Of a stretch of 12,665 bases of DNA, positions 2,281 through 12,665 are shown piece by piece. The stretch is from Nitrospirota bacterium (lineage in GTDB: Bacteria; Nitrospirota; UBA9217), in NCBI GenBank assembly GCA_029858565.1, contig JAOUEV010000079.1:1-12665 (forward strand), read 5' to 3'. Below the pieces are notes generated by a model. It was given only the letters and a program-made list of their open reading frames with translations, did no database searches and had not been told where the DNA came from. Positions within the stretch are counted from its first letter, which is position 1. Each line of letters opens with the position of its first letter. Position numbers and translations under genes: made by a program.

Positions 2281-5200
2281 ATGAACGAAGAACGAAGGAT
2301 CAACGAGGAATTGAAAGCGGAGCTGGAGCAGCTCCGCAAACGCGCCCGGTACCTGGAACAGGAGCGCGGGAAGATGCAGGAAACGCTCACGGATGCCGAA
2401 GAGCGGTGCCAGCTGATCTGCGAGAATTCGCCGATCGGCATGGGATTCATCAACCTCGACGGCGTGCTCGTTGACTGCAATGACGCGCTCTCGTCGATCA
2501 TCGGCACCCCCCGGGACCGTTTGATCGGATTCCCGATGAAGACGGGTCTCACCAACGAGGCGGTTGCCGTTGCCCTGGCGCGGGCATTTGCGGGGCGCAC
2601 CGGCGCGTTCGAGGGCGAGTACGCGGGGGTAACGAGCGGCAAGACGACGTCCCTTCGGGCGATCTTTTCCCCGCTGTTCAGCAGGGACGGGATGCTCAGG
2701 GGAGTATTGTTCCTTGCAGAGGACATCAGCGAGCGCAAACAGATGGAAGAATCGCTCCGGCAGAGCGAGGAGCGGTATCGCCAGCTGTTCGAAGCGGAAT
2801 CGGACGCTCTGTTCCTGATCGACAACGAAACAGGCCGCATCCTCATGGCGAATGCCGCAGCCGCGGCCATGTATGGATTCAGCGAGGCGGAACTCCGGGA
2901 AAAGAAGAACACCGACCTGTCCGCGGAGCCGTCGGAGACCCGGCGGGTGACCGAGGAAACGCCGGTGCTGAAGGATGCCGCGGTGACCATTCCTCTCCGG
3001 TATCACCGCAAAAGAGACGGCGCGGTCTTTCCGGTGGAGATCACGGGCAGGTTCTTTGACTACAAGGGCCGGCCGGTCCACATCGCCGCCATCCGGGATA
3101 TCTCCGAACGCAAAAGGGCCGAGGAACAGCTTAAGGAAAGCGAGGAAAAGTACAAGTTCCTTATCGAGGCGACCAGGACCGGCTTTGTGATCATCAATGG
3201 TGAGGGACGCGTTCTTGATGCAAATGACGAGTATGTGCGCCTGAGCGGTCATGCCAAGCAGGAGGATATCCTCGGCAGGGGCGTGGTGGAGTGGACCGCC
3301 GCGCATGACCGGGAGCGCAATGCAGAGGAAGTGAAAAAGTGCGTGGAAACAGGATTCGTCCAAAACCTGGAGGTCGACTATGTGCACGAAAACGGCCGAA
3401 TTTCTCCGGTCGAGATAAATGCGACGGCCATGCGCACCGGCGGCGCGATACGGATATTCACCATCTGCAGGGACATCACCGAGCGCAAACGGGCGGAGGA
3501 GGCGCTCCGGGACAGCCGGCGGTTCCTGGAGGAGATCATTGAGTCTGCGCCCACCTGAATCAAGGTCATTGCTGCAGACGGGACTCTGCAGAGGATGAAC
3601 ACCGCGGGACTGGCAATGCTCGAAGCGGAATCCCTTGATCAGGTCAAAGGCCTCTGCGTCTATCCGATGGTATCCGGGGAATATCGGAAAGCGTTCGAGG
3701 CCCTGACGCGGGATGTCTTCAAAGGGGAAAGCCGAACACTGGAATTCAAAATGTCCGGTTTGAAAGGGCGGCCGCTCTGGCTCCACACGCATGCTGTCCC
3801 TCTGCGCAACGAACAGGGGGAGATCGTTTCAGTGCTTGCGATCACGACCGACATCACCGAGCGAAAGCTTGCAGAAGATGCGCAGAAAGAGAGCAAGCGA
3901 TCCCTCGGGAGGCTCATGGGCAATCTTCCGGGCATGGCCTACCGCTGCCGGAACGACCGGGACTGGACCATGGAGTACGTGAGCGAGGGCGCGCTCGACC
4001 TGACCGGCTACCAGCCGGCCGACCTCCGGGAGAACGCGAAGGTCGCGTACAACGAGCTGGTCGATCCCGAGGATCGGCAAGCCGTATGGGATGCAGTCCA
4101 GCAGGCGGTCCGGCAGAAACGGAAGTTCACGCTGAACTACCGGATCCGCACGGCCGATGGCAGGGAGAAGCGGGTCTGGGAGCAGGGGCAGGGGGTCTTT
4201 TCCGAGGAGGGAGACCTGCTCGCACTGGAGGGATTCATCACCGATGTTACCGAACGGCAGCTTCTCGAGGAGGAGCGTCTCAAGACCCAGAAGCTCGAGT
4301 CCATCGGCACGCTTGCCGGCGGCATTGCCCACGATTTCAACAATCTGCTGCAGGGCATGTTCGGGTACATTTCCATGGCCAAGGTGTCCCTGGACCAGAA
4401 GGAGAAAGCCGGCGCCATGCTCGAACAGGCGGAGAAGGCGCTGCACCAGTCCGTGAACCTGACGACCCAGCTTTTGACCTTCTCCAAGGGCGGCAGACCG
4501 GTCAGGAAGACGATCCCGCTCCGGCCGGTGATCGAGAACGCCGTGAAGTTCGCCCTGAGCGGATCCCGCCTGAACTACCGGATCGATATGGACGATCGGC
4601 TTCGGCCGGTGGAAATCGACGAAGGCCAGATCGGCCAGGTGATCCAGAACATCGTGCTGAACGCTGACCAGGCCATGCCCCTGGGCGGGAACATCAGGAT
4701 CGAGGCCCGGAACGTCCATACCGGGGACCCGGGGGTGCCGCAGACGCTGGCCCCGGGCGACTATGTCGCCATAGCGATCAGCGATAACGGCATCGGCATT
4801 CCGGAGCAGTTCCTGTCCCGCATCTTCGATCCCTATTTCACCACCAAGGAGAAGGGGAGCGGTCTGGGGCTTGCGACATCCTATTCCATAGTCAAGAACC
4901 ATGAAGGGATCATCGATGTCTCGTCCCAGGCAGGGACGGGCACGCTGTTCACGATCTACCTTCCCGCGCTTCCCGGCAGTGCGGCCGAGGCGGACATCGG
5001 TCCAGCTGCGGCGCCCCCGGCACGGCGGGGCCGCATCCTGGTGATGGATGACGAGGAGATCGTCCGGATGGTCTCGGGAGAGCTCATCCGGTCCCTGGGA
5101 CATGAGGTCGACTTCGCGGAGCACGGCGACGCCGCGGTCGTGAAGTTCCGGGAAGCAAGGACCGCGGGTCATCCTTTCGATGTGGTCATCCTGGACCTGA

Positions 5201-5400
5201 CGATCCGCGGCGGTATGGGCGGACTGGAGACGTTCCAAAAGCTGAAGGAGATCGATCCGGAGGTCAAGGCAGTGGTATCGAGCGGTTACTCCGACGACGC
5301 GATCGTCGCGAACTACCGGAAGCACGGGTTCCGGGCGTTCCTGAAGAAACCCTATGATCTCGCGGAATTGCGGAGCATTCTGGACTCCCGTATGGCATAA
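2281..5400 (+). CDS. Cytoplasmic hybrid sensor histidine kinase (coiled coil, 5 PAS/PAC, HisKA, HATPase_c, REC), 1039 aa with one in-frame TGA at codon 426; candidate selenoprotein, alternatively a nonsense-split pseudogene
   Basis: ORFs 2281-3558 and 3595-5400 share a frame and read continuously IIESAPT-TGA-IKVIAADGTLQRMNTAGLAMLEA. Five PAS domains end in DISER/DITER/DVTER. H-box GGIAHDFNNLL, N-box QVIQNIVLNA, G1 DNGIGI, F/G2 FDPYFTTK..GSGLGL, receiver ILVMDDE...ILDLTI...FLKKPY. SD GGAG at 2270-2273. No transmembrane segment seen. Confidence 0.88.
3566..3598 (+). promoter_or_regulatory. Putative bacterial SECIS hairpin
   Basis: Upper stem CTGCAGA (3572-78)/TCTGCAG (3585-91), a perfect 7 bp. 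Apical loop CGGGAC. Lower stem TCATT (3566-70)/GATGA (3594-98) beyond a 1x2 internal loop. There are 20 nt between the TGA and the loop. Confidence 0.6.
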
Positions 5401-6758: not shown

Positions 6759-8003
6759 ATGCTTCCCTTCCGCGCGGGTCTTTCCGTTCTGGCGGCACTG
6801 ATCGTTCTGCAGGCCTGTTCCCACGGCAAACCGCCGGTGGACGAGGACCGGCTGGAGCGCATGACCGCGACCGTAAGCCTTCTTGCCGGTCCGTCATTCC
6901 ATGGCCGCGGTGTCGGCACGCCGGAACTGGACAAGGCCGGGCAGTATATTGCCGACCGGTTCGAATCCGCAGGGCTCATGCCGGGCGGCTCCCGGGGATG
7001 GTTCCAGGAATGGACCGATCCTGACCTGAAGGTGCGGATGCGGAACGTGGTCGGCATCCTGCCGGGCAGGAACCAGGAACTTGCCGGCCAGAGCGTTGTC
7101 ATCGGGGCGCACTACGACCATCTGGGCGCCGGCGGTCCCGGGGCGTACAAGGAGAATCAGGGCAGGGTCCATCCCGGGGCTGACGACAACGGGAGCGGCG
7201 TCGCGGCGCTGCTGGAACTGGTGCATGTCATGACGCTGGACCCGACGCCTGAGCGGAGCATCATCTTCGTGGCATTCACGGGCGAGGAAGCGGGCAGAAA
7301 GGGATCGCGCTACTTCGTCGCGAACATGGCGGGGCATCCTCCATCGAAATGCGTCGGCATGATCAACCTCGACACGGTCGGACGTCTGGGAAAGGGCAGG
7401 CTGATCGTGCTGGGCGAAGGCTCGGCGCGGGAATGGCCGCAGATCTTCCAGGAAGCCGGCAAAGCGGCGCAGATCGGGGTCGTGGGGAACAGCGCGGCCC
7501 TTGATGCAAGCGACCAGGTGAGCTTTCATGAGGCCGGAGTGCCGGCGGTGCAGCTCTTTTCCGGCCCCCATCCGGATTACCACCGTCCTTCGGACACAGC
7601 GGAGAAGATCGATTATACCGGCCTTTCCGCGATCACGACCGTCGCGAGGATCGCCGGTCATTATCTGGCGAACCTGCAGGGCCGTCTCTCTGCCACGATC
7701 GCGCTCCCTGCTTCGATTGCCGCTGCCAAGACCGGGGACCGCAAGACCACGCTCGGCATTGTGCCGGACTTCACCTATCAGGAGCGCGGCGTCCGTCTCG
7801 GCGGCGTGAGTCCCGGAGGGCCGGCGGAAGCAGCGGGCATGCGCCAGGGAGATATCATCACCCAGGTCAACAGCAGGCCGGTCGCCGGGCTGAAGGACAT
7901 TGCCGATGAACTGCGGTCCCGGAATCCTGGGGACCAGGTTCGGGTGTTCTTCCTGCGGCAGGGAAAAGAAATGAAGGCTGATGCCGTGCTGAAGGAAAAG
8001 TAA
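6759..8003 (+). CDS. M28-family Zn aminopeptidase with C-terminal PDZ domain, probable lipoprotein
   Basis: Lipobox LQAC. Zn-ligand motifs GAHYDH, GADDNGSG, FTGEEAG, MINLDTVG, SDQ..F, DYHRPSD. PDZ: LGIVPDF...GPAEAAGMRQGDIITQVN. SD GGAGG. Confidence 0.93.
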   Translation: MLPFRAGLSVLAALIVLQACSHGKPPVDEDRLERMTATVSLLAGPSFHGRGVGTPELDKAGQYIADRFESAGLMPGGSRGWFQEWTDPDLKVRMRNVVGILPGRNQELAGQSVVIGAHYDHLGAGGPGAYKENQGRVHPGADDNGSGVAALLELVHVMTLDPTPERSIIFVAFTGEEAGRKGSRYFVANMAGHPPSKCVGMINLDTVGRLGKGRLIVLGEGSAREWPQIFQEAGKAAQIGVVGNSAALDASDQVSFHEAGVPAVQLFSGPHPDYHRPSDTAEKIDYTGLSAITTVARIAGHYLANLQGRLSATIALPASIAAAKTGDRKTTLGIVPDFTYQERGVRLGGVSPGGPAEAAGMRQGDIITQVNSRPVAGLKDIADELRSRNPGDQVRVFFLRQGKEMKADAVLKEK

Positions 8004-8026: not shown

Positions 8027-8716
8027 GTGGAACTGAAAAGCCTTGACCTGCATGAACTGAACCTTCTGAACCAGAAGCGCTATGCCTGGACCGCCTGGTT
8101 CTACGACATCCTGGACTGGCCCTGGGAGCGGCAGTACCGCACCTGGCGGCCGGGCCTGCTGGCCGATGTTTCCGGCGAGGTGCTTGAGGCGGGCGTTGGC
8201 ACCGGGCGCAACCTTCCGCACTACCCCGAGCACGCGCACGTGACTGCCGTGGACTTCAGTCCGGCCATGCTGAAGCGGGCATCGAAACAATGCCGCAATG
8301 CCGTCTGCTCGGTCAGGTTCGTGCATGAGGACGCCTGCAGGATGGAGTCCGTTCCGGCGGCGTCCTGCGACTGGGTGGTGGCATTCTTTCTCTGCTGTGT
8401 TCTGCCCGAGGAGCTGCAGGACCGGGCCATTGCCGAGTTCGCCCGGGTCCTGAAACCCGGAGGCAGGTTCCGGCTGCTCGAGATGCGCTACTCTGACGAC
8501 CCGAAACTGCGCAAGCGGCAGGACCTGTTCGCGCCTTTCGTGCGGAAGGTCTACGGCGCCGGGTTCGACCGGAACACGCTGAAGCATCTGCGGAGCAATC
8601 CGGACCTGGAGATCACGGGAACGCGGTTCGTGAAGCACGACACCTATCTGCTCATTGAGGGAAAAAGGAGCCACCCGGGAACGCCGGGGTATTCTGAAAA
8701 AAAGCGGCCTTTATAA
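8027..8716 (+). CDS. Class I SAM-dependent methyltransferase (Methyltransf_11, UbiE/PmtA-like)
   Basis: Motif I VLEAGVGTGRNL, VTAVDFSPAML, EDA, EFARVLKPGGRFRLLE. GTG start with GAGGG upstream, 23 nt after the peptidase stop. Substrate cannot be assigned. Confidence 0.9.
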   Translation: MELKSLDLHELNLLNQKRYAWTAWFYDILDWPWERQYRTWRPGLLADVSGEVLEAGVGTGRNLPHYPEHAHVTAVDFSPAMLKRASKQCRNAVCSVRFVHEDACRMESVPAASCDWVVAFFLCCVLPEELQDRAIAEFARVLKPGGRFRLLEMRYSDDPKLRKRQDLFAPFVRKVYGAGFDRNTLKHLRSNPDLEITGTRFVKHDTYLLIEGKRSHPGTPGYSEKKRPL

Positions 8717-8813: not shown

Positions 8814-10142
8814 ATGGAAAAGTTGCCAGTCAGGATGTTGATCGCCGATGATGAGAAGAACATCCGGGAGTTGCTGCGAAACGAGCTCTCAACGATGGTT
8901 TCGTCGGTCCAGGAGGTGGAGAGCGGTGTACGCGCCCTGGAAGAGCTCGAAAAAAGCGAGTATGATATTCTTCTGCTCGACCTTACCATGCCCGAGATGG
9001 ACGGCATTACGGTCCTCAAGAAACTGAAAGCTCTCGATATTCCCGCCGAGATCATCATTCTCACCGCCAACGCCACCGTGCAGACTGCTGTCGAGGCCAT
9101 GAAGCTCGGCGCCTGCGATTACCTTATGAAGCCCTTCAGGATCGCGGAGTTGCTCCCGGTCGTTGAAAAGGCATACGAGAAAAAGAAGCTCCGCTCCGAG
9201 AACCTTCTGCTCAAGACCCAGGTTAAGAAACAATCGGAGATCCGCAGTCTGATCGCGGAAAGCCCGATGATGCGGGAGGTGATCGGGCGGTCGAAAAAGA
9301 TCGCGCATTCGGATTTTCCCGTGCTGATCACCGGGGAGAGCGGGACGGGCAAGGAACTGATAGCGCGATTCATCCACAACGAATCCCCCCGCGCCGACCG
9401 GTCCTACGTTGTCATCAATTGCGGCGCCCTGCCTGATAATATGATCGAGAGCGAGCTGTTCGGCTATGAAAAGGGCGCGTTCACCGGCGCGCAGGCGAGA
9501 AAGCCGGGTCTGCTCGAGATCGCCAACGAGGGAACGCTCTTCCTTGACGAGATCGGGGACATGCCGCTGCCGCTCCAGGTAAAGCTGCTGCGGGTCATCG
9601 AGACCGGAACATTCTACCGGCTCGGGGGCACCCGGGAGCAGCAGGTCAACGTACGGATCATTTCCGCGACCAATAAGAACCTGAAGGCCGGGATCGAGAA
9701 AGGCGTATTTCGGGAGGACCTCTATTACCGGGTATCCGCCCTTGCCGTTCATGTCCCTCCGCTGCGGGAGCGGAGGGAAGACATTGTCCCTCTTGTCGAA
9801 CACTGCAGGCGCGGCAATCCCGCGTTCAAACAAAAGCAGTTCAGCAGCGATGCGCTGAAAATATTGTCCGACCACGCCTGGCCGGGGAATGTCCGACAGC
9901 TTCAGAACATGGTCCATCACGCCCTTCTGCTGAGTACGAACGATCTGGTAGAGCCTCCGGACCTGTCTTGTGATCTGGAGGGCCGGCCGGCAAGAACCGC
10001 TACCCGGCTCGACGAGCTGGAACGGGAGCACGTCCTGCGGATGCTGAGGCAGGCAGGGGGCGACCGGAACAAGGCGGCCGCGGCGCTGGGGATCCACACG
10101 AGGACCCTGGCCCGGAGGCTCGAGGAGTACGGGGTTGAGTGA
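8814..10142 (+). CDS. Sigma-54-dependent response regulator, NtrC/AtoC family (REC-AAA+-Fis HTH)
   Basis: Receiver LIADDE...LLDLTMP...YLMKPF. Walker A ITGESGTGKE, ESELFGYEKGAFTGA, Walker B LFLDEIGD, FREDLYYR, WPGNVRQL, HTH GGDRNKAAAALGIHTRTLARRL. SD AAGGA. Confidence 0.96.
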   Translation: MEKLPVRMLIADDEKNIRELLRNELSTMVSSVQEVESGVRALEELEKSEYDILLLDLTMPEMDGITVLKKLKALDIPAEIIILTANATVQTAVEAMKLGACDYLMKPFRIAELLPVVEKAYEKKKLRSENLLLKTQVKKQSEIRSLIAESPMMREVIGRSKKIAHSDFPVLITGESGTGKELIARFIHNESPRADRSYVVINCGALPDNMIESELFGYEKGAFTGAQARKPGLLEIANEGTLFLDEIGDMPLPLQVKLLRVIETGTFYRLGGTREQQVNVRIISATNKNLKAGIEKGVFREDLYYRVSALAVHVPPLRERREDIVPLVEHCRRGNPAFKQKQFSSDALKILSDHAWPGNVRQLQNMVHHALLLSTNDLVEPPDLSCDLEGRPARTATRLDELEREHVLRMLRQAGGDRNKAAAALGIHTRTLARRLEEYGVE

Positions 10143-10154
10143 TGACATACTCTC

Positions 10155-12665
10155 ATGCCTGATATGAATATTCAGGGGATCTTTCGAAAGTTCACGCTGA
10201 ACATGGCAGGCGTTCTTAATCGCCGGTCTTTTGCCATTAAGGCACTCTCCGTTATTGTACCGGTCATCGCTCCCCTTGTGTTTTGTTCTCCGGCGTTTTG
10301 TCTTCAAAAAACCGCTAAAATCGGCGTTCTTGCATACCGTGGCGCCGCGGAAGCGCTGCAGATGTGGTCTCCAACCGCTGCGTACCTGAGCGCACACGTC
10401 CCGAATTACCATTTTTCGGTCATTCCCCTGACTTTTCGCGAGATCGGCCCGGCTGTCCGCAACGGCGAAGTCGACTTCGTGGTTGCGAACACCTCCATCT
10501 ATGTGGAGCTTGAAACACAATATGGCATCAGCAGGATCGCAACGATCAAGAACAAGAGCCGGCTCGGCGGTTTCACGGTATTCGGCGGTGTGATATTCTG
10601 CCGGACTGATCGGCGCGATATCCGCGAGATCGGGGACCTGAAGGGCAGGTCGTTCATGGCTGTTGACGAAACCTCTCTGGGGGGGTGGCAGGCCGCATGG
10701 AAAGAACTGAAAGGCCATGGGATAGAACCGCATCGTGATTTCAAGGGTCTGCGGTTCGGAGACACGCATGATGCGGTTGTGCATGCAGTGCTGAACGGCA
10801 AGGTTGACGCGGGAACGGTGCGCACTGATACGCTCGAGCACATGGCGGCGGATGGGAAAATAGATCTTCAGGCCTTCCGCATAATCAATGAGCAGCGCGT
10901 CGAGGGCTTCCCGTACGCGCTCAGCACCCGTCTATATCCTGAATGGCCCTTTGCCAAGCTGCGCCACGCTGATAATGAGCTTGCCCAGAAGGTCGTTATT
11001 GCGCTGCTCCGGCTCGCTCCGGACAGCCGGGCGGCAAAGGCGGCGAAGATCATGGGCTGGACCGTGCCGCTCGATTACGAGCCGGTCCATGAGCTTCTGA
11101 AGGGGCTCCGCATGGGCCCCTACAAAGACTATGGGAAGATCACCTTGTCCGCGGCGATCAGGCATCATTGGCACTGGGCCGCACTCGCTTTGCTGACAGT
11201 GCTGTTGATGGCGGCAGCCACGTCATATGTGTTCGCACTCAACCGAAGATTGGCGCTCTCGCAGGGGCGGCTGGAGGAGGCGAAAAACAGTCTTGAGCGC
11301 GAGGTGCGGGACAGGACGGCAAAACTTTCGGAAAGCGAGGAGCGCTACCGGCTGATCGTGGATACGTCGCTTGAAGGAATTATTACGATCGATCCCAGGG
11401 GAGAAATCGTCCTCTCGAATAATCGGATGGCGGAGATGCTCGGACGGACCCGGGAGGAGCTCCTGGGGGGGTTGCTCGTGTCGTTCGTGCATGAGGACGA
11501 GGCACTGGACCACGAGAAACAGCATAACCTGTGGTTGCAGGGGAAGACCTCGTATTATGAACGCCGGTTCCGCAAGAAAGACGGCACGGTGACCTGGACA
11601 AGCGCCACGGCAACGCCGCTATTCAATCAGGACGGAACTTTGCGCGGCGCGTCCGGCCTGTTCACCGATATCACCGAGCGCAAAAAAGCGGAGAAGGACC
11701 TGCAGCGAGAGCGAGACCGGGCGGAACGGTATCTTGATATTGCGGGGGTAATGTTCGCTACGCTGAACACCGAAGGGGAAATATGCCTGGTCAACAAAAA
11801 AGGATGCAGTATTTTGGGATATGACGATGAGTCTGAACTGCTTGGCCGCGACTGGTTCGAGGTATGCCTGCCCGGCACTGTCAAGGATTCGGTGAAGGGA
11901 GTGTTTGATCAGCTTATGGCAGGCGATGTTGAGCCGGTCGAATATTACGAGAACCCGGTGGTTACGAAAGCGGGCGACGAGCGGATAATCGCATTCCACA
12001 ATACAGTCTTGTATGATCCGTTGTCAAAGCGGCCCTCCGGCATCTTGTTCTCAGGCGAGGACATTACCGACCGCTACAAAATGGACCGGGCGCTTCGTGA
12101 AACGAACGAAATGCTTGAGACTCTGGTGCGGGCATCGCCGCTGGCGATTGTCGTTTTTGACGGGGACGGGAATGTGGCGCTCTGGAATCCGGCTGCAGAG
12201 CGGATTTTCGGCTGGAACGCGCAGGAAGTACTGGGCCGCTTTAATCCGATCGTGGGGGAAGAAAAAAAACAGGAGTTCCTGGCCCTCCTGGACCGGGTGA
12301 TGCACGGCGAATCGCTGTCCAGCGTGAGCCTGCGGCGGAGCAAAAAGGATGGCTCGGTCATAGATGTCAGCGTATCGTCTGCACCCATGCGCAATGCGGC
12401 CCATGAGCCTGTGGGCATTATTTCGGTGATCGCCGACATCACCGCGAGGAAACAGGCTGAAGCGGAGCGGGAAAATCTTATCGCCGATATCCGGAGCGCT
12501 CTCGATGCCGTGAACCGCTCGAAAAAAGAGTGGCAGGAGACCTTCGACAGCATCACGGACATGATATCCATCCACGACAGGGACTATAACGTCATCAAGG
12601 CGAATAAGGCGTTCTCGGCGAACCTGGGGAAAACCCCTCAGGAGGTCATCAACAGGAAATGTTAT
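10155..12665 (+). CDS. Membrane sensor, probably a histidine kinase (3'-truncated): PhnD/phosphonate-binding-type periplasmic domain (TtrS/ThsS-like), TM helix, at least 4 PAS domains
   Basis: Hand-translated open frame from ATG 10155 (alternatives 10164, 10203) to the window end with no stop. Hydrophobic N-terminus, KIGVLAYRG..W.PTAAYLS, VDFVVAN..YVELE, SLGGWQ, VDAGTVRTDTLE, STRLYPEWPFA, GWTVPLDY, TM WAALALLTVLLMAAATSYVFAL (about 11175-11240), then PAS domains ending DITER, DITDR and DITAR and the start of a fourth. The kinase core is not in the window. Confidence 0.9.
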   Translation, partial: MPDMNIQGIFRKFTLNMAGVLNRRSFAIKALSVIVPVIAPLVFCSPAFCLQKTAKIGVLAYRGAAEALQMWSPTAAYLSAHVPNYHFSVIPLTFREIGPAVRNGEVDFVVANTSIYVELETQYGISRIATIKNKSRLGGFTVFGGVIFCRTDRRDIREIGDLKGRSFMAVDETSLGGWQAAWKELKGHGIEPHRDFKGLRFGDTHDAVVHAVLNGKVDAGTVRTDTLEHMAADGKIDLQAFRIINEQRVEGFPYALSTRLYPEWPFAKLRHADNELAQKVVIALLRLAPDSRAAKAAKIMGWTVPLDYEPVHELLKGLRMGPYKDYGKITLSAAIRHHWHWAALALLTVLLMAAATSYVFALNRRLALSQGRLEEAKNSLEREVRDRTAKLSESEERYRLIVDTSLEGIITIDPRGEIVLSNNRMAEMLGRTREELLGGLLVSFVHEDEALDHEKQHNLWLQGKTSYYERRFRKKDGTVTWTSATATPLFNQDGTLRGASGLFTDITERKKAEKDLQRERDRAERYLDIAGVMFATLNTEGEICLVNKKGCSILGYDDESELLGRDWFEVCLPGTVKDSVKGVFDQLMAGDVEPVEYYENPVVTKAGDERIIAFHNTVLYDPLSKRPSGILFSGEDITDRYKMDRALRETNEMLETLVRASPLAIVVFDGDGNVALWNPAAERIFGWNAQEVLGRFNPIVGEEKKQEFLALLDRVMHGESLSSVSLRRSKKDGSVIDVSVSSAPMRNAAHEPVGIISVIADITARKQAEAERENLIADIRSALDAVNRSKKEWQETFDSITDMISIHDRDYNVIKANKAFSANLGKTPQEVINRKCY

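Follow-up and report, generated by a model that had tools for sequence, protein, structure and literature searches.

An in-frame UGA at the invariant cysteine of a PAS domain probably encodes selenocysteine in a Nitrospirota hybrid histidine kinase

In bacteria, selenocysteine (Sec) is decoded by SelA, SelB, SelC and SelD together with a hairpin in the mRNA, and the known selenoproteins are overwhelmingly redox enzymes and thiol-oxidoreductase-like proteins. Cysteine-based sensing by PAS domains is represented by the redox-active cysteines of ArcB, the flavin-Cys adduct of LOV and the chromophore thioester of PYP, in which a single reactive Cys leads to kinase regulation; these cysteines lie at fold positions other than the start of strand A-beta. 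The gene described here may join the two themes. It encodes a hybrid sensor histidine kinase on the forward strand (positions 2281-5400) of a 12,665-nucleotide stretch of Nitrospirota DNA, hereafter the window, which is the entire contig JAOUEV010000079.1 (contig C57) of its genome, G000 (3.9 Mb, 144 contigs, 57% G+C). A single in-frame TGA at 3556-3558 stands at residue 426 of the frame. With a probability of about 85%, the gene yields a hybrid histidine kinase of full length by decoding UGA-426 as Sec, because the UGA occupies an invariant Cys column, a conserved hairpin follows it, the genome holds a complete Sec apparatus and the part downstream is under selection. Insertion of Sec at codon 426, taken by itself, is predicted with marginally greater confidence.

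The closest systems in terms of recoding are the FdhA/fdhF and SelD genes, including those of G000. Like the kinase gene, these have UGA at the Cys position of their homologues, a hairpin 3' of it within the coding sequence with a G-rich loop about 20 nt downstream, and selA, selB, selC and selD in the genome. Unlike FdhA and SelD, the kinase is a multi-PAS signalling protein and not an oxidoreductase, and its proposed Sec forms no UxxC or CxxU motif: the context is P-T-U-[IV]-K, and the nearest Cys is 33 residues away. The recoding mechanism is thus the known one, in a protein class that is new to curated lists. Table 1 of a 2026 review of the prokaryotic selenoproteome (PMC13188914), with 119 families and subfamilies, holds no PAS, histidine kinase or two-component entry, and term searches of that review, of a 2022 review (PMC9312934) and of the deep-Sep paper (PMC12013277) gave no relevant mention of a kinase, two-component system, sensor or signal transduction. 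One precedent is found in Kivenson et al. 2021 (PMC8318568), where "a histidine kinase" from marine Deltaproteobacteria is named among putative new selenoproteins, explicitly unverified and predicted from UGA plus a Sec insertion sequence (SECIS). That candidate resembles the window gene in having an in-frame UGA followed by a predicted SECIS. It differs in coming from another phylum, and the passage gives no domain, position or Sec/Cys comparison by which to place it inside or outside the same PAS family. The statement of the original prediction that no characterised Sec-containing two-component kinase is known agrees with this literature, the one candidate being unverified. As far as the literature searched shows, the Sec/Cys, clade and hairpin evidence presented below for a PAS kinase is unpublished.

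The kinase gene comprises 1039 codons followed by a TAA stop. Translation table 11 divides it into two open reading frames (ORFs) in the same frame, at 2281-3558 (425 amino acids) and 3595-5400 (601 amino acids). When TGA is read as U, the frame runs continuously through 1039 residues, and U426 is the sole codon that deviates from table 11; the TGA is therefore the only interruption, as first described. Pfam domains above their cut-offs are four to five PAS stretches (PAS_4/PAS_9/PAS), PAS_3 at residues 566-652, the HATPase_c catalytic domain at residues 780-896 (4618-4968, 82.8 bits) and a Response_reg receiver domain at residues 919-1034 (5035-5382, 62.4 bits). The HisKA phospho-acceptor region at residues 676-737 (4306-4491) aligns with 22.4 bits, under its 26.9-bit cut-off. 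Tallied as five PAS domains, HisKA, HATPase_c and a receiver, the protein has the complete layout of a hybrid sensor histidine kinase and is intact on both sides of the TGA, with the reservation that applies to the HisKA score. In the NCBIfam scan all named kinase families fall below their cut-offs and only the generic PAS S-box family TIGR00229 passes (259.9 against 22.9 bits), so that the kinase has no named equivalog there.

The TGA lies in the fourth PAS domain, which spans residues 404-530 (3490-3870) according to Pfam and alignment. It occupies column 23 of the 127-column alignment of this domain, just past the N-cap helix and at the start of the first strand, A-beta. This position places it within the domain and not in a linker, in accordance with the earlier claim. 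The domain belongs to a Cys-type subfamily for which the original prediction gave the motif EPECVK(L/V), with the TGA on the Cys; EPECVK[LVI] is indeed the most frequent context of this column in the wider family, and the window reads APT-U-IK. A profile search of 1.84 billion representative proteins returned 3530 at E <= 1e-30. Among the 150 best of these 3530 proteins, the TGA column holds Cys in 130 of the 132 domains that score at least 90 bits, with one Ser and one Leu, whereas weakly matching PAS domains in the same 150 proteins mostly have Gly, Pro or Ala there. The invariant columns of the family are P21, C/U23, K25, M36, N37, W97 and H101, and the window domain has P-T-U-I-K, M36, N37, W97 and H101. 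Where the common motif has Glu-21' and Glu-22', the window has Ala and Thr. We know of no characterised function for the subfamily.

A search with the PAS domain in 64 genomes of the same family gave matches at E <= 1e-20 in 51. Among the matches listed, three carry one TGA, in G000, in G002 (same genus) and in G066 (another genus), and the rest have none. The aligned codon is TGA in three and TGY in 28 of 31 matches (30 loci fetched), so that every match without TGA has the Cys expected by the original prediction. The forms nearest to the window domain that use Cys are those of G009 (69% identity) and G016 (67%). The Cys-type domains share the fold and the invariant columns, show 50-70% identity to the window domain and belong to multi-PAS kinases of similar make-up, one of them a paralogue encoded in G000 itself (contig C144, 58% identity). 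They differ in having TGY in place of TGA, Glu-Pro-Glu before the Cys in place of the Ala-Pro-Thr of the Sec clade, and L or I at the position of its Gln+11; they also lack the hairpin, with 2.9 of 7 stem pairs on average.

Independent TGA forms were sought with a degenerate nucleotide pattern anchored on TGA and the conserved codons downstream of it. In contigs of species-representative genomes the pattern occurs in 11 stretches, all 11 of them in-frame homologues that read A/V-P-T-TGA-[IV]-K and stay open before and after the TGA. Ten of these are labelled Nitrospirota, Nitrospirae, Thermodesulfovibrionia, Candidatus Sulfobium or uncultured Nitrospira, and one Candidatus Omnitrophota. In metagenome contigs it occurs in 18 stretches, again all in-frame homologues, 17 of which run on to a normal stop or as far as their contig extends. 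A pattern that finds only true in-frame homologues does so beyond chance; among 401 genomes sampled evenly across the phylum, four had the TGA pattern and 76 the corresponding TGY pattern, and a reversed-pattern control gave none in either search. Together with G000 and G066, the genome and metagenome stretches yield 28 distinct domain sequences. Counted by source, TGA stands at the column in contigs of nine further named assemblies, and the metagenome contigs that have it carry 15 distinct dataset prefixes. The recurrence in independent genomes that the original prediction called for is thus seen in G002, G066 and G233 and in the 11 genome and 18 metagenome stretches. The clade comprises 11 species-level genomes (the nine named assemblies, G000 and G066) and many metagenomes, all of which keep TGA and hairpin.

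Several loci deserve separate mention. Two genomes each hold two different genes with the Sec-type PAS domain, L079 and L082 in WPIF01 (G233) and L083 and L086 in JACRGY01. The module is found in several architectures, and some products end 189 or 317 codons past the Sec codon, without a kinase core. The Omnitrophota locus, L080, has a regional protein sequence identical to those of the Nitrospirae loci L086 and L079, one of which, by its label, comes from the same groundwater series; its placement could reflect mis-binning or recent transfer. A putative second TGA kinase on contig C244 of G010 was rejected, the TGA being the ordinary stop of that gene.

In a maximum-likelihood tree of 39 domains, all 11 TGA rows fall with the Cys pair G009/G016 in one starred clade (97/92). 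The sister of this TGA-bearing clade is the Cys form of G008, and 25 further Cys forms group in a starred clade of their own; one change from Cys to Sec is compatible with the starred branches. The pair nested in the Sec clade, on contig C38 of G009 (L024/L048) and contig C307 of G016 (L049), has TGT at the column and retains the full hairpin. With the models used, neither selA nor selB was found in G009 (96% completeness), and G016 has both. These two forms look like recent replacements of Sec by Cys with a relic SECIS. The metagenome TGA form L093 is nearly identical to them, from which it follows that Sec and Cys interconvert among close relatives.

Across the 104 codons after the TGA, dN/dS among Sec forms is 0.12-0.21 at dS of 0.97-1.5, values of purifying selection that indicate a translated downstream part and no relaxation of selection. 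They bear directly on the explanation that the TGA is a true stop, in which the gene would make a 425-residue PAS-only protein and the kinase part would be a pseudogene or be re-initiated at the ATG at 3595-3597. Table 11 does call two separate ORFs; bacteria as a rule decode Sec with low efficiency, so a truncated product is expected beside the full-length one; and in L097, a metagenome copy, the frame is lost 107 codons past the TGA. Nevertheless, 28 other loci have the same TGA between open frames, and so low a dN/dS at near-saturated dS is incompatible with an old pseudogene. The ATG, which is likely called as the downstream ORF start, encodes the family-invariant Met (column 36) of the PAS "MN" motif and is not a conserved start site. 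It does lie mid-domain and directly behind a GAGG, as had been noted, but this GAGG is not conserved, the relatives having AGT, ATG, AAA, AGC or ACA, and a product begun there would miss the PAS strand A-beta entirely and B-beta for the most part. A true stop is therefore very improbable. In L097 itself (1350-1397 and downstream), the TGA and the hairpin are kept and the frame is lost about 85-107 codons later; a frameshift error or decay of the copy would account for this.

Downstream of the TGA, the transcript can form a SECIS-like hairpin at 3566-3598. It consists of a lower stem (3566-3570/3594-3598), an upper stem of 7 bp (3572-3578, CUGCAGA, with 3585-3591, UCUGCAG) and an apical loop, CGGGAC, at 3579-3584. 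Numbered from the U of UGA, the lower stem takes nt 11-15/39-43, the upper stem nt 17-23/30-36 and the loop nt 24-29; the upper stem begins 13 nt and the G-rich loop 20 nt past the UGA. The bSECISearch model reportedly expects a stem-loop close behind the UGA, with an apical loop at a distance of about 16-37 nt whose opening bases include a G, and the kinase hairpin is a stem-loop of this type. The loop is CGGGUC in many relatives. In G000, the apical loops of the fdhA and selD genes, GGUCU, GGG or AGGUC, start at nt 22-27, and the kinase loop starts at nt 24, so that the kinase hairpin agrees with these SECIS elements in spacing and in the kind of loop.

The original prediction named an adjacent 3' hairpin, and its 7-bp upper stem is kept in 21 distinct TGA sequences. 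In these, pairing holds for 92.1% of cells and drops to 34-54% once the partner is shifted along, and RNAalifold returned the upper stem independently. Sec forms have on average 6.6 of the 7 upper-stem pairs, whereas the 26 Cys forms from outside the clade have 2.9 (at most 5), and eight Cys forms that share the A-D-G-x-L residues have 2-5. The codon choice follows the same division: Gly+8 is GGG in 20 of 21 Sec forms, while the 23 Gly codons of the Cys forms include 16 GGC and 3 GGG; Leu+10 is CTG in all 21 Sec forms versus 15 of 26 Cys forms; and Gln+11 (CAG), the source of the 3' arm, is restricted to the Sec clade. Among three Sec forms, identical synonymous codons number 6 of 8 at +1 to +14 versus 9 of 48 further downstream (Fisher p = 0.003, for an interval picked after inspection). 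The median local folding energy is -11.0 kcal/mol in TGA forms (n = 11) versus -5.35 kcal/mol in Cys forms (n = 28). On the other side of the TGA, at 3490-3555, 8 of 12 synonymous codons are identical in the three Sec forms, and GCG CCC ACC immediately precedes the TGA; this upstream conservation may point to a codon context that serves Sec decoding or to an RNA element of greater extent.

The genes named for checking, selA, selB, selC and selD, are all present in G000. ARAGORN finds one tRNA with a UCA anticodon, a tRNA-Sec of 99 nt that scores 64 bits against a gathering score of 47. SelA (604 bits) and SelB (389 bits) are over their curated cut-offs, and the genome has selD twice, in each case with a single TGA that falls on the canonical G-U-x-x-K site. 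Three fdhA-like genes each have one in-frame TGA ahead of H-S. These five genes (three fdhA-like and two selD, at C24:36502-39606, C41:36624-37355, C7:7744-8481, C3:2376-3290 and C14:90529-91446) serve as SECIS references within the genome, each having one in-frame TGA and a hairpin with a loop of GGUC or GGG type. TGA is the terminator of four of the seven neighbouring genes in the window; it is thus a normal stop except at special sites, and no general reassignment has taken place. Both selA and selB were also detected in the TGA-bearing genomes G002, G066 and G233. In G066, they lie on the same contig as the TGA (C11:52799-56312; 67101), about 11 kb upstream of the Sec-PAS kinase TGA, an arrangement that answers the worry that kinase and machinery were wrongly binned together.

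Several observations weigh against decoding of UGA-426 as Sec. The sel genes of the fragmented 144-contig assembly sit on contigs other than that of the window. A 91-nt segment folds no better than its shuffles (z = -0.97; 33 of 200 shuffles at least as stable), so that reliance is placed on comparative evidence. Covariation is not significant, with one double-sided change and 49 of 500 shuffles reaching the observed score, and RNAalifold finds no compensatory pairs; in consequence, the case for the hairpin rests on conservation at synonymous sites, where the protein sequence does not demand it. Part of the stem is nevertheless encoded by the conserved residues A-D-G-x-L-Q, and the counts that set Sec forms against Cys forms largely compare a clade with its outgroup and are not phylogenetically independent. 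The nested Cys forms of G009 and G016 keep the hairpin, which is hence not exclusive to TGA. Rfam gives no relevant match within 3400-3800 at E <= 10. Finally, selC* tRNA(Cys) species with GCA or UCA anticodons are described for Thermodesulfovibrio and for probable Nitrospirae contigs in PMC5389517, so that Cys could enter at UGA in some relatives.

This last point leads to the explanation that UGA-426 is read not as Sec but as Cys or some other standard amino acid, by way of a selC*-type tRNA(Cys), a mis-acylated tRNA-Sec or near-cognate suppression stimulated by the hairpin. According to PMC5389517, one selC* tRNA(Cys) reads an opal Sec codon as Cys in E. coli, and Cys is functionally acceptable at the TGA column, as the relatives with the Cys form demonstrate. 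In G000, however, ARAGORN finds no selC*-type tRNA(Cys) among 45 tRNAs: the tRNA-Sec is the sole tRNA with a UCA anticodon, and the sole tRNA-Cys is a 76-nt species with GCA. A complete selA/selB/selD set is present, and for the insertion of Cys a TGY codon would suffice, as in 76 of the 401 sampled genomes. The maintenance of TGA and hairpin throughout the clade argues for a benefit specific to Sec. Decoding as Cys or another standard residue is thus improbable, though less so than a true stop, and insertion of Sec is preferred.

The base call was followed into a separate assembly. A Logan contig of run X1 (1387 nt, depth about 13) covers 3474-3900 with no differences and reproduces the TGA. 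Run X1 is the probable source, containing 99% of the sampled words, and is not an independent sample; runs X2-X4 contain small shares only and leave the TGA uncovered. No RNA run is listed as containing the stretch. An assembly or sequencing error, or a recent nonsense mutation private to this genome, would find some room in the fragmentation of the 144-contig assembly and in the coverage of the site by the probable source run alone. The identity of the Logan assembly over 3474-3900 stands against it, and the many other TGA-bearing records make an error untenable; we regard its likelihood as negligible. At 3468-3510, contigs from all four runs pile up with depths of up to thousands. A repeat of the locus was rejected as the cause, the segment being the DITERK-R-AEE linker, which many unrelated kinases have repeatedly between their PAS domains.

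With Sec as the preferred reading at codon 426, SelB-GTP carrying Sec-tRNA(Sec) would bind the hairpin on the translating mRNA, and Sec would be delivered to the UGA in competition with release factor 2. Termination at the UGA would give a 425-residue PAS-only by-product. In the full-length protein, the selenol at the start of A-beta in the fourth PAS domain would act as the Cys of the family does, with a lower pKa and easier reversible oxidation. As a reactive sensing residue, U426 would most likely form a selenenylsulfide with Cys459, or alternatively an adduct or a ligand bond. The resulting change would shift the conformation of the PAS domain, and through it both the autophosphorylation of the kinase and the transfer of phosphate to the receiver fused to it.

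The original prediction had proposed a signalling selenoprotein with U426 as a redox or ligand sensor, and none of the refuting conditions given with it was borne out by these analyses. The part that concerns the Sec codon is strengthened by the Sec/Cys pairing, the independent TGA forms, the hairpin, the machinery and the selection, while the sensor part stays conjectural. A sensing role is suggested by two features, the invariance of the Cys column and the co-fixation of a second Cys. The Cys is invariant alongside Pro-21, Lys-25, Met-36, Asn-37, Trp-97 and His-101, which points to a reactive or ligand-binding residue and not to a structural one. Of the 22 distinct full Sec-form domains, 21 have the second Cys, Cys459 (3655-3657, alignment column 56); 5 of 26 Cys forms outside the Sec clade have it, as do 36 of the 132 wider-family domains. 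Near-fixed in the clade and rare outside it, Cys459 is the candidate partner of U426 and suggests a U426-C459 selenenylsulfide switch. By analogy with ArcB, LOV and PYP, the Sec or Cys of the family may work like their sensing Cys; to our knowledge, neither a cofactor nor a stimulus has been described for the EPECVK PAS family. A profile search of solved structures gave generic PAS matches only, with no ligand clue, and the best of them, 3lyx at E = 4.4e-5, is not close, a point that counts against the assignment of a sensing role. For the selenol itself as the sensing group, the chances are judged to be about even.

Going further, the kinase could tentatively be viewed as the first selenium-based two-component sensor, in which a reversible U426/Cys459 selenenylsulfide or a selenol-ligand bond in the fourth PAS domain would switch the kinase, with its synthesis gated by selenium, and which would report on both selenium and redox. 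This wider proposal is somewhat doubtful. If it were true, the selenol switch, with a lower potential and resistance to over-oxidation, would suit an anaerobe. As the UGA lies upstream of the kinase core, the selenium supply would also control how much full-length kinase is made; in that case selenium status and redox state would both be reported by the pathway, and the 425-residue PAS-only product would be the default under selenium scarcity.

A PAS clade that replaces an invariant Cys by Sec would extend the use of selenium to signal perception. It would also provide a natural Sec/Cys pair for probing the signal that a very large PAS subfamily (3530 representatives, E <= 1e-30) senses with its invariant Cys. 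Gene callers split or truncate such genes at the TGA, and kinases of this kind are consequently mis-annotated in Nitrospirota genomes.

Elsewhere in the window, an M28 peptidase with a PDZ domain is encoded at 6759-8003 and a methyltransferase at 8027-8716. A sigma-54-dependent response regulator follows at 8814-10142, and then a second sensor kinase at 10155-12665, which combines PAS domains with a periplasmic domain of phosphonate-binding type and is cut off by the contig end. The regulator and this second kinase probably form a separate two-component pair.

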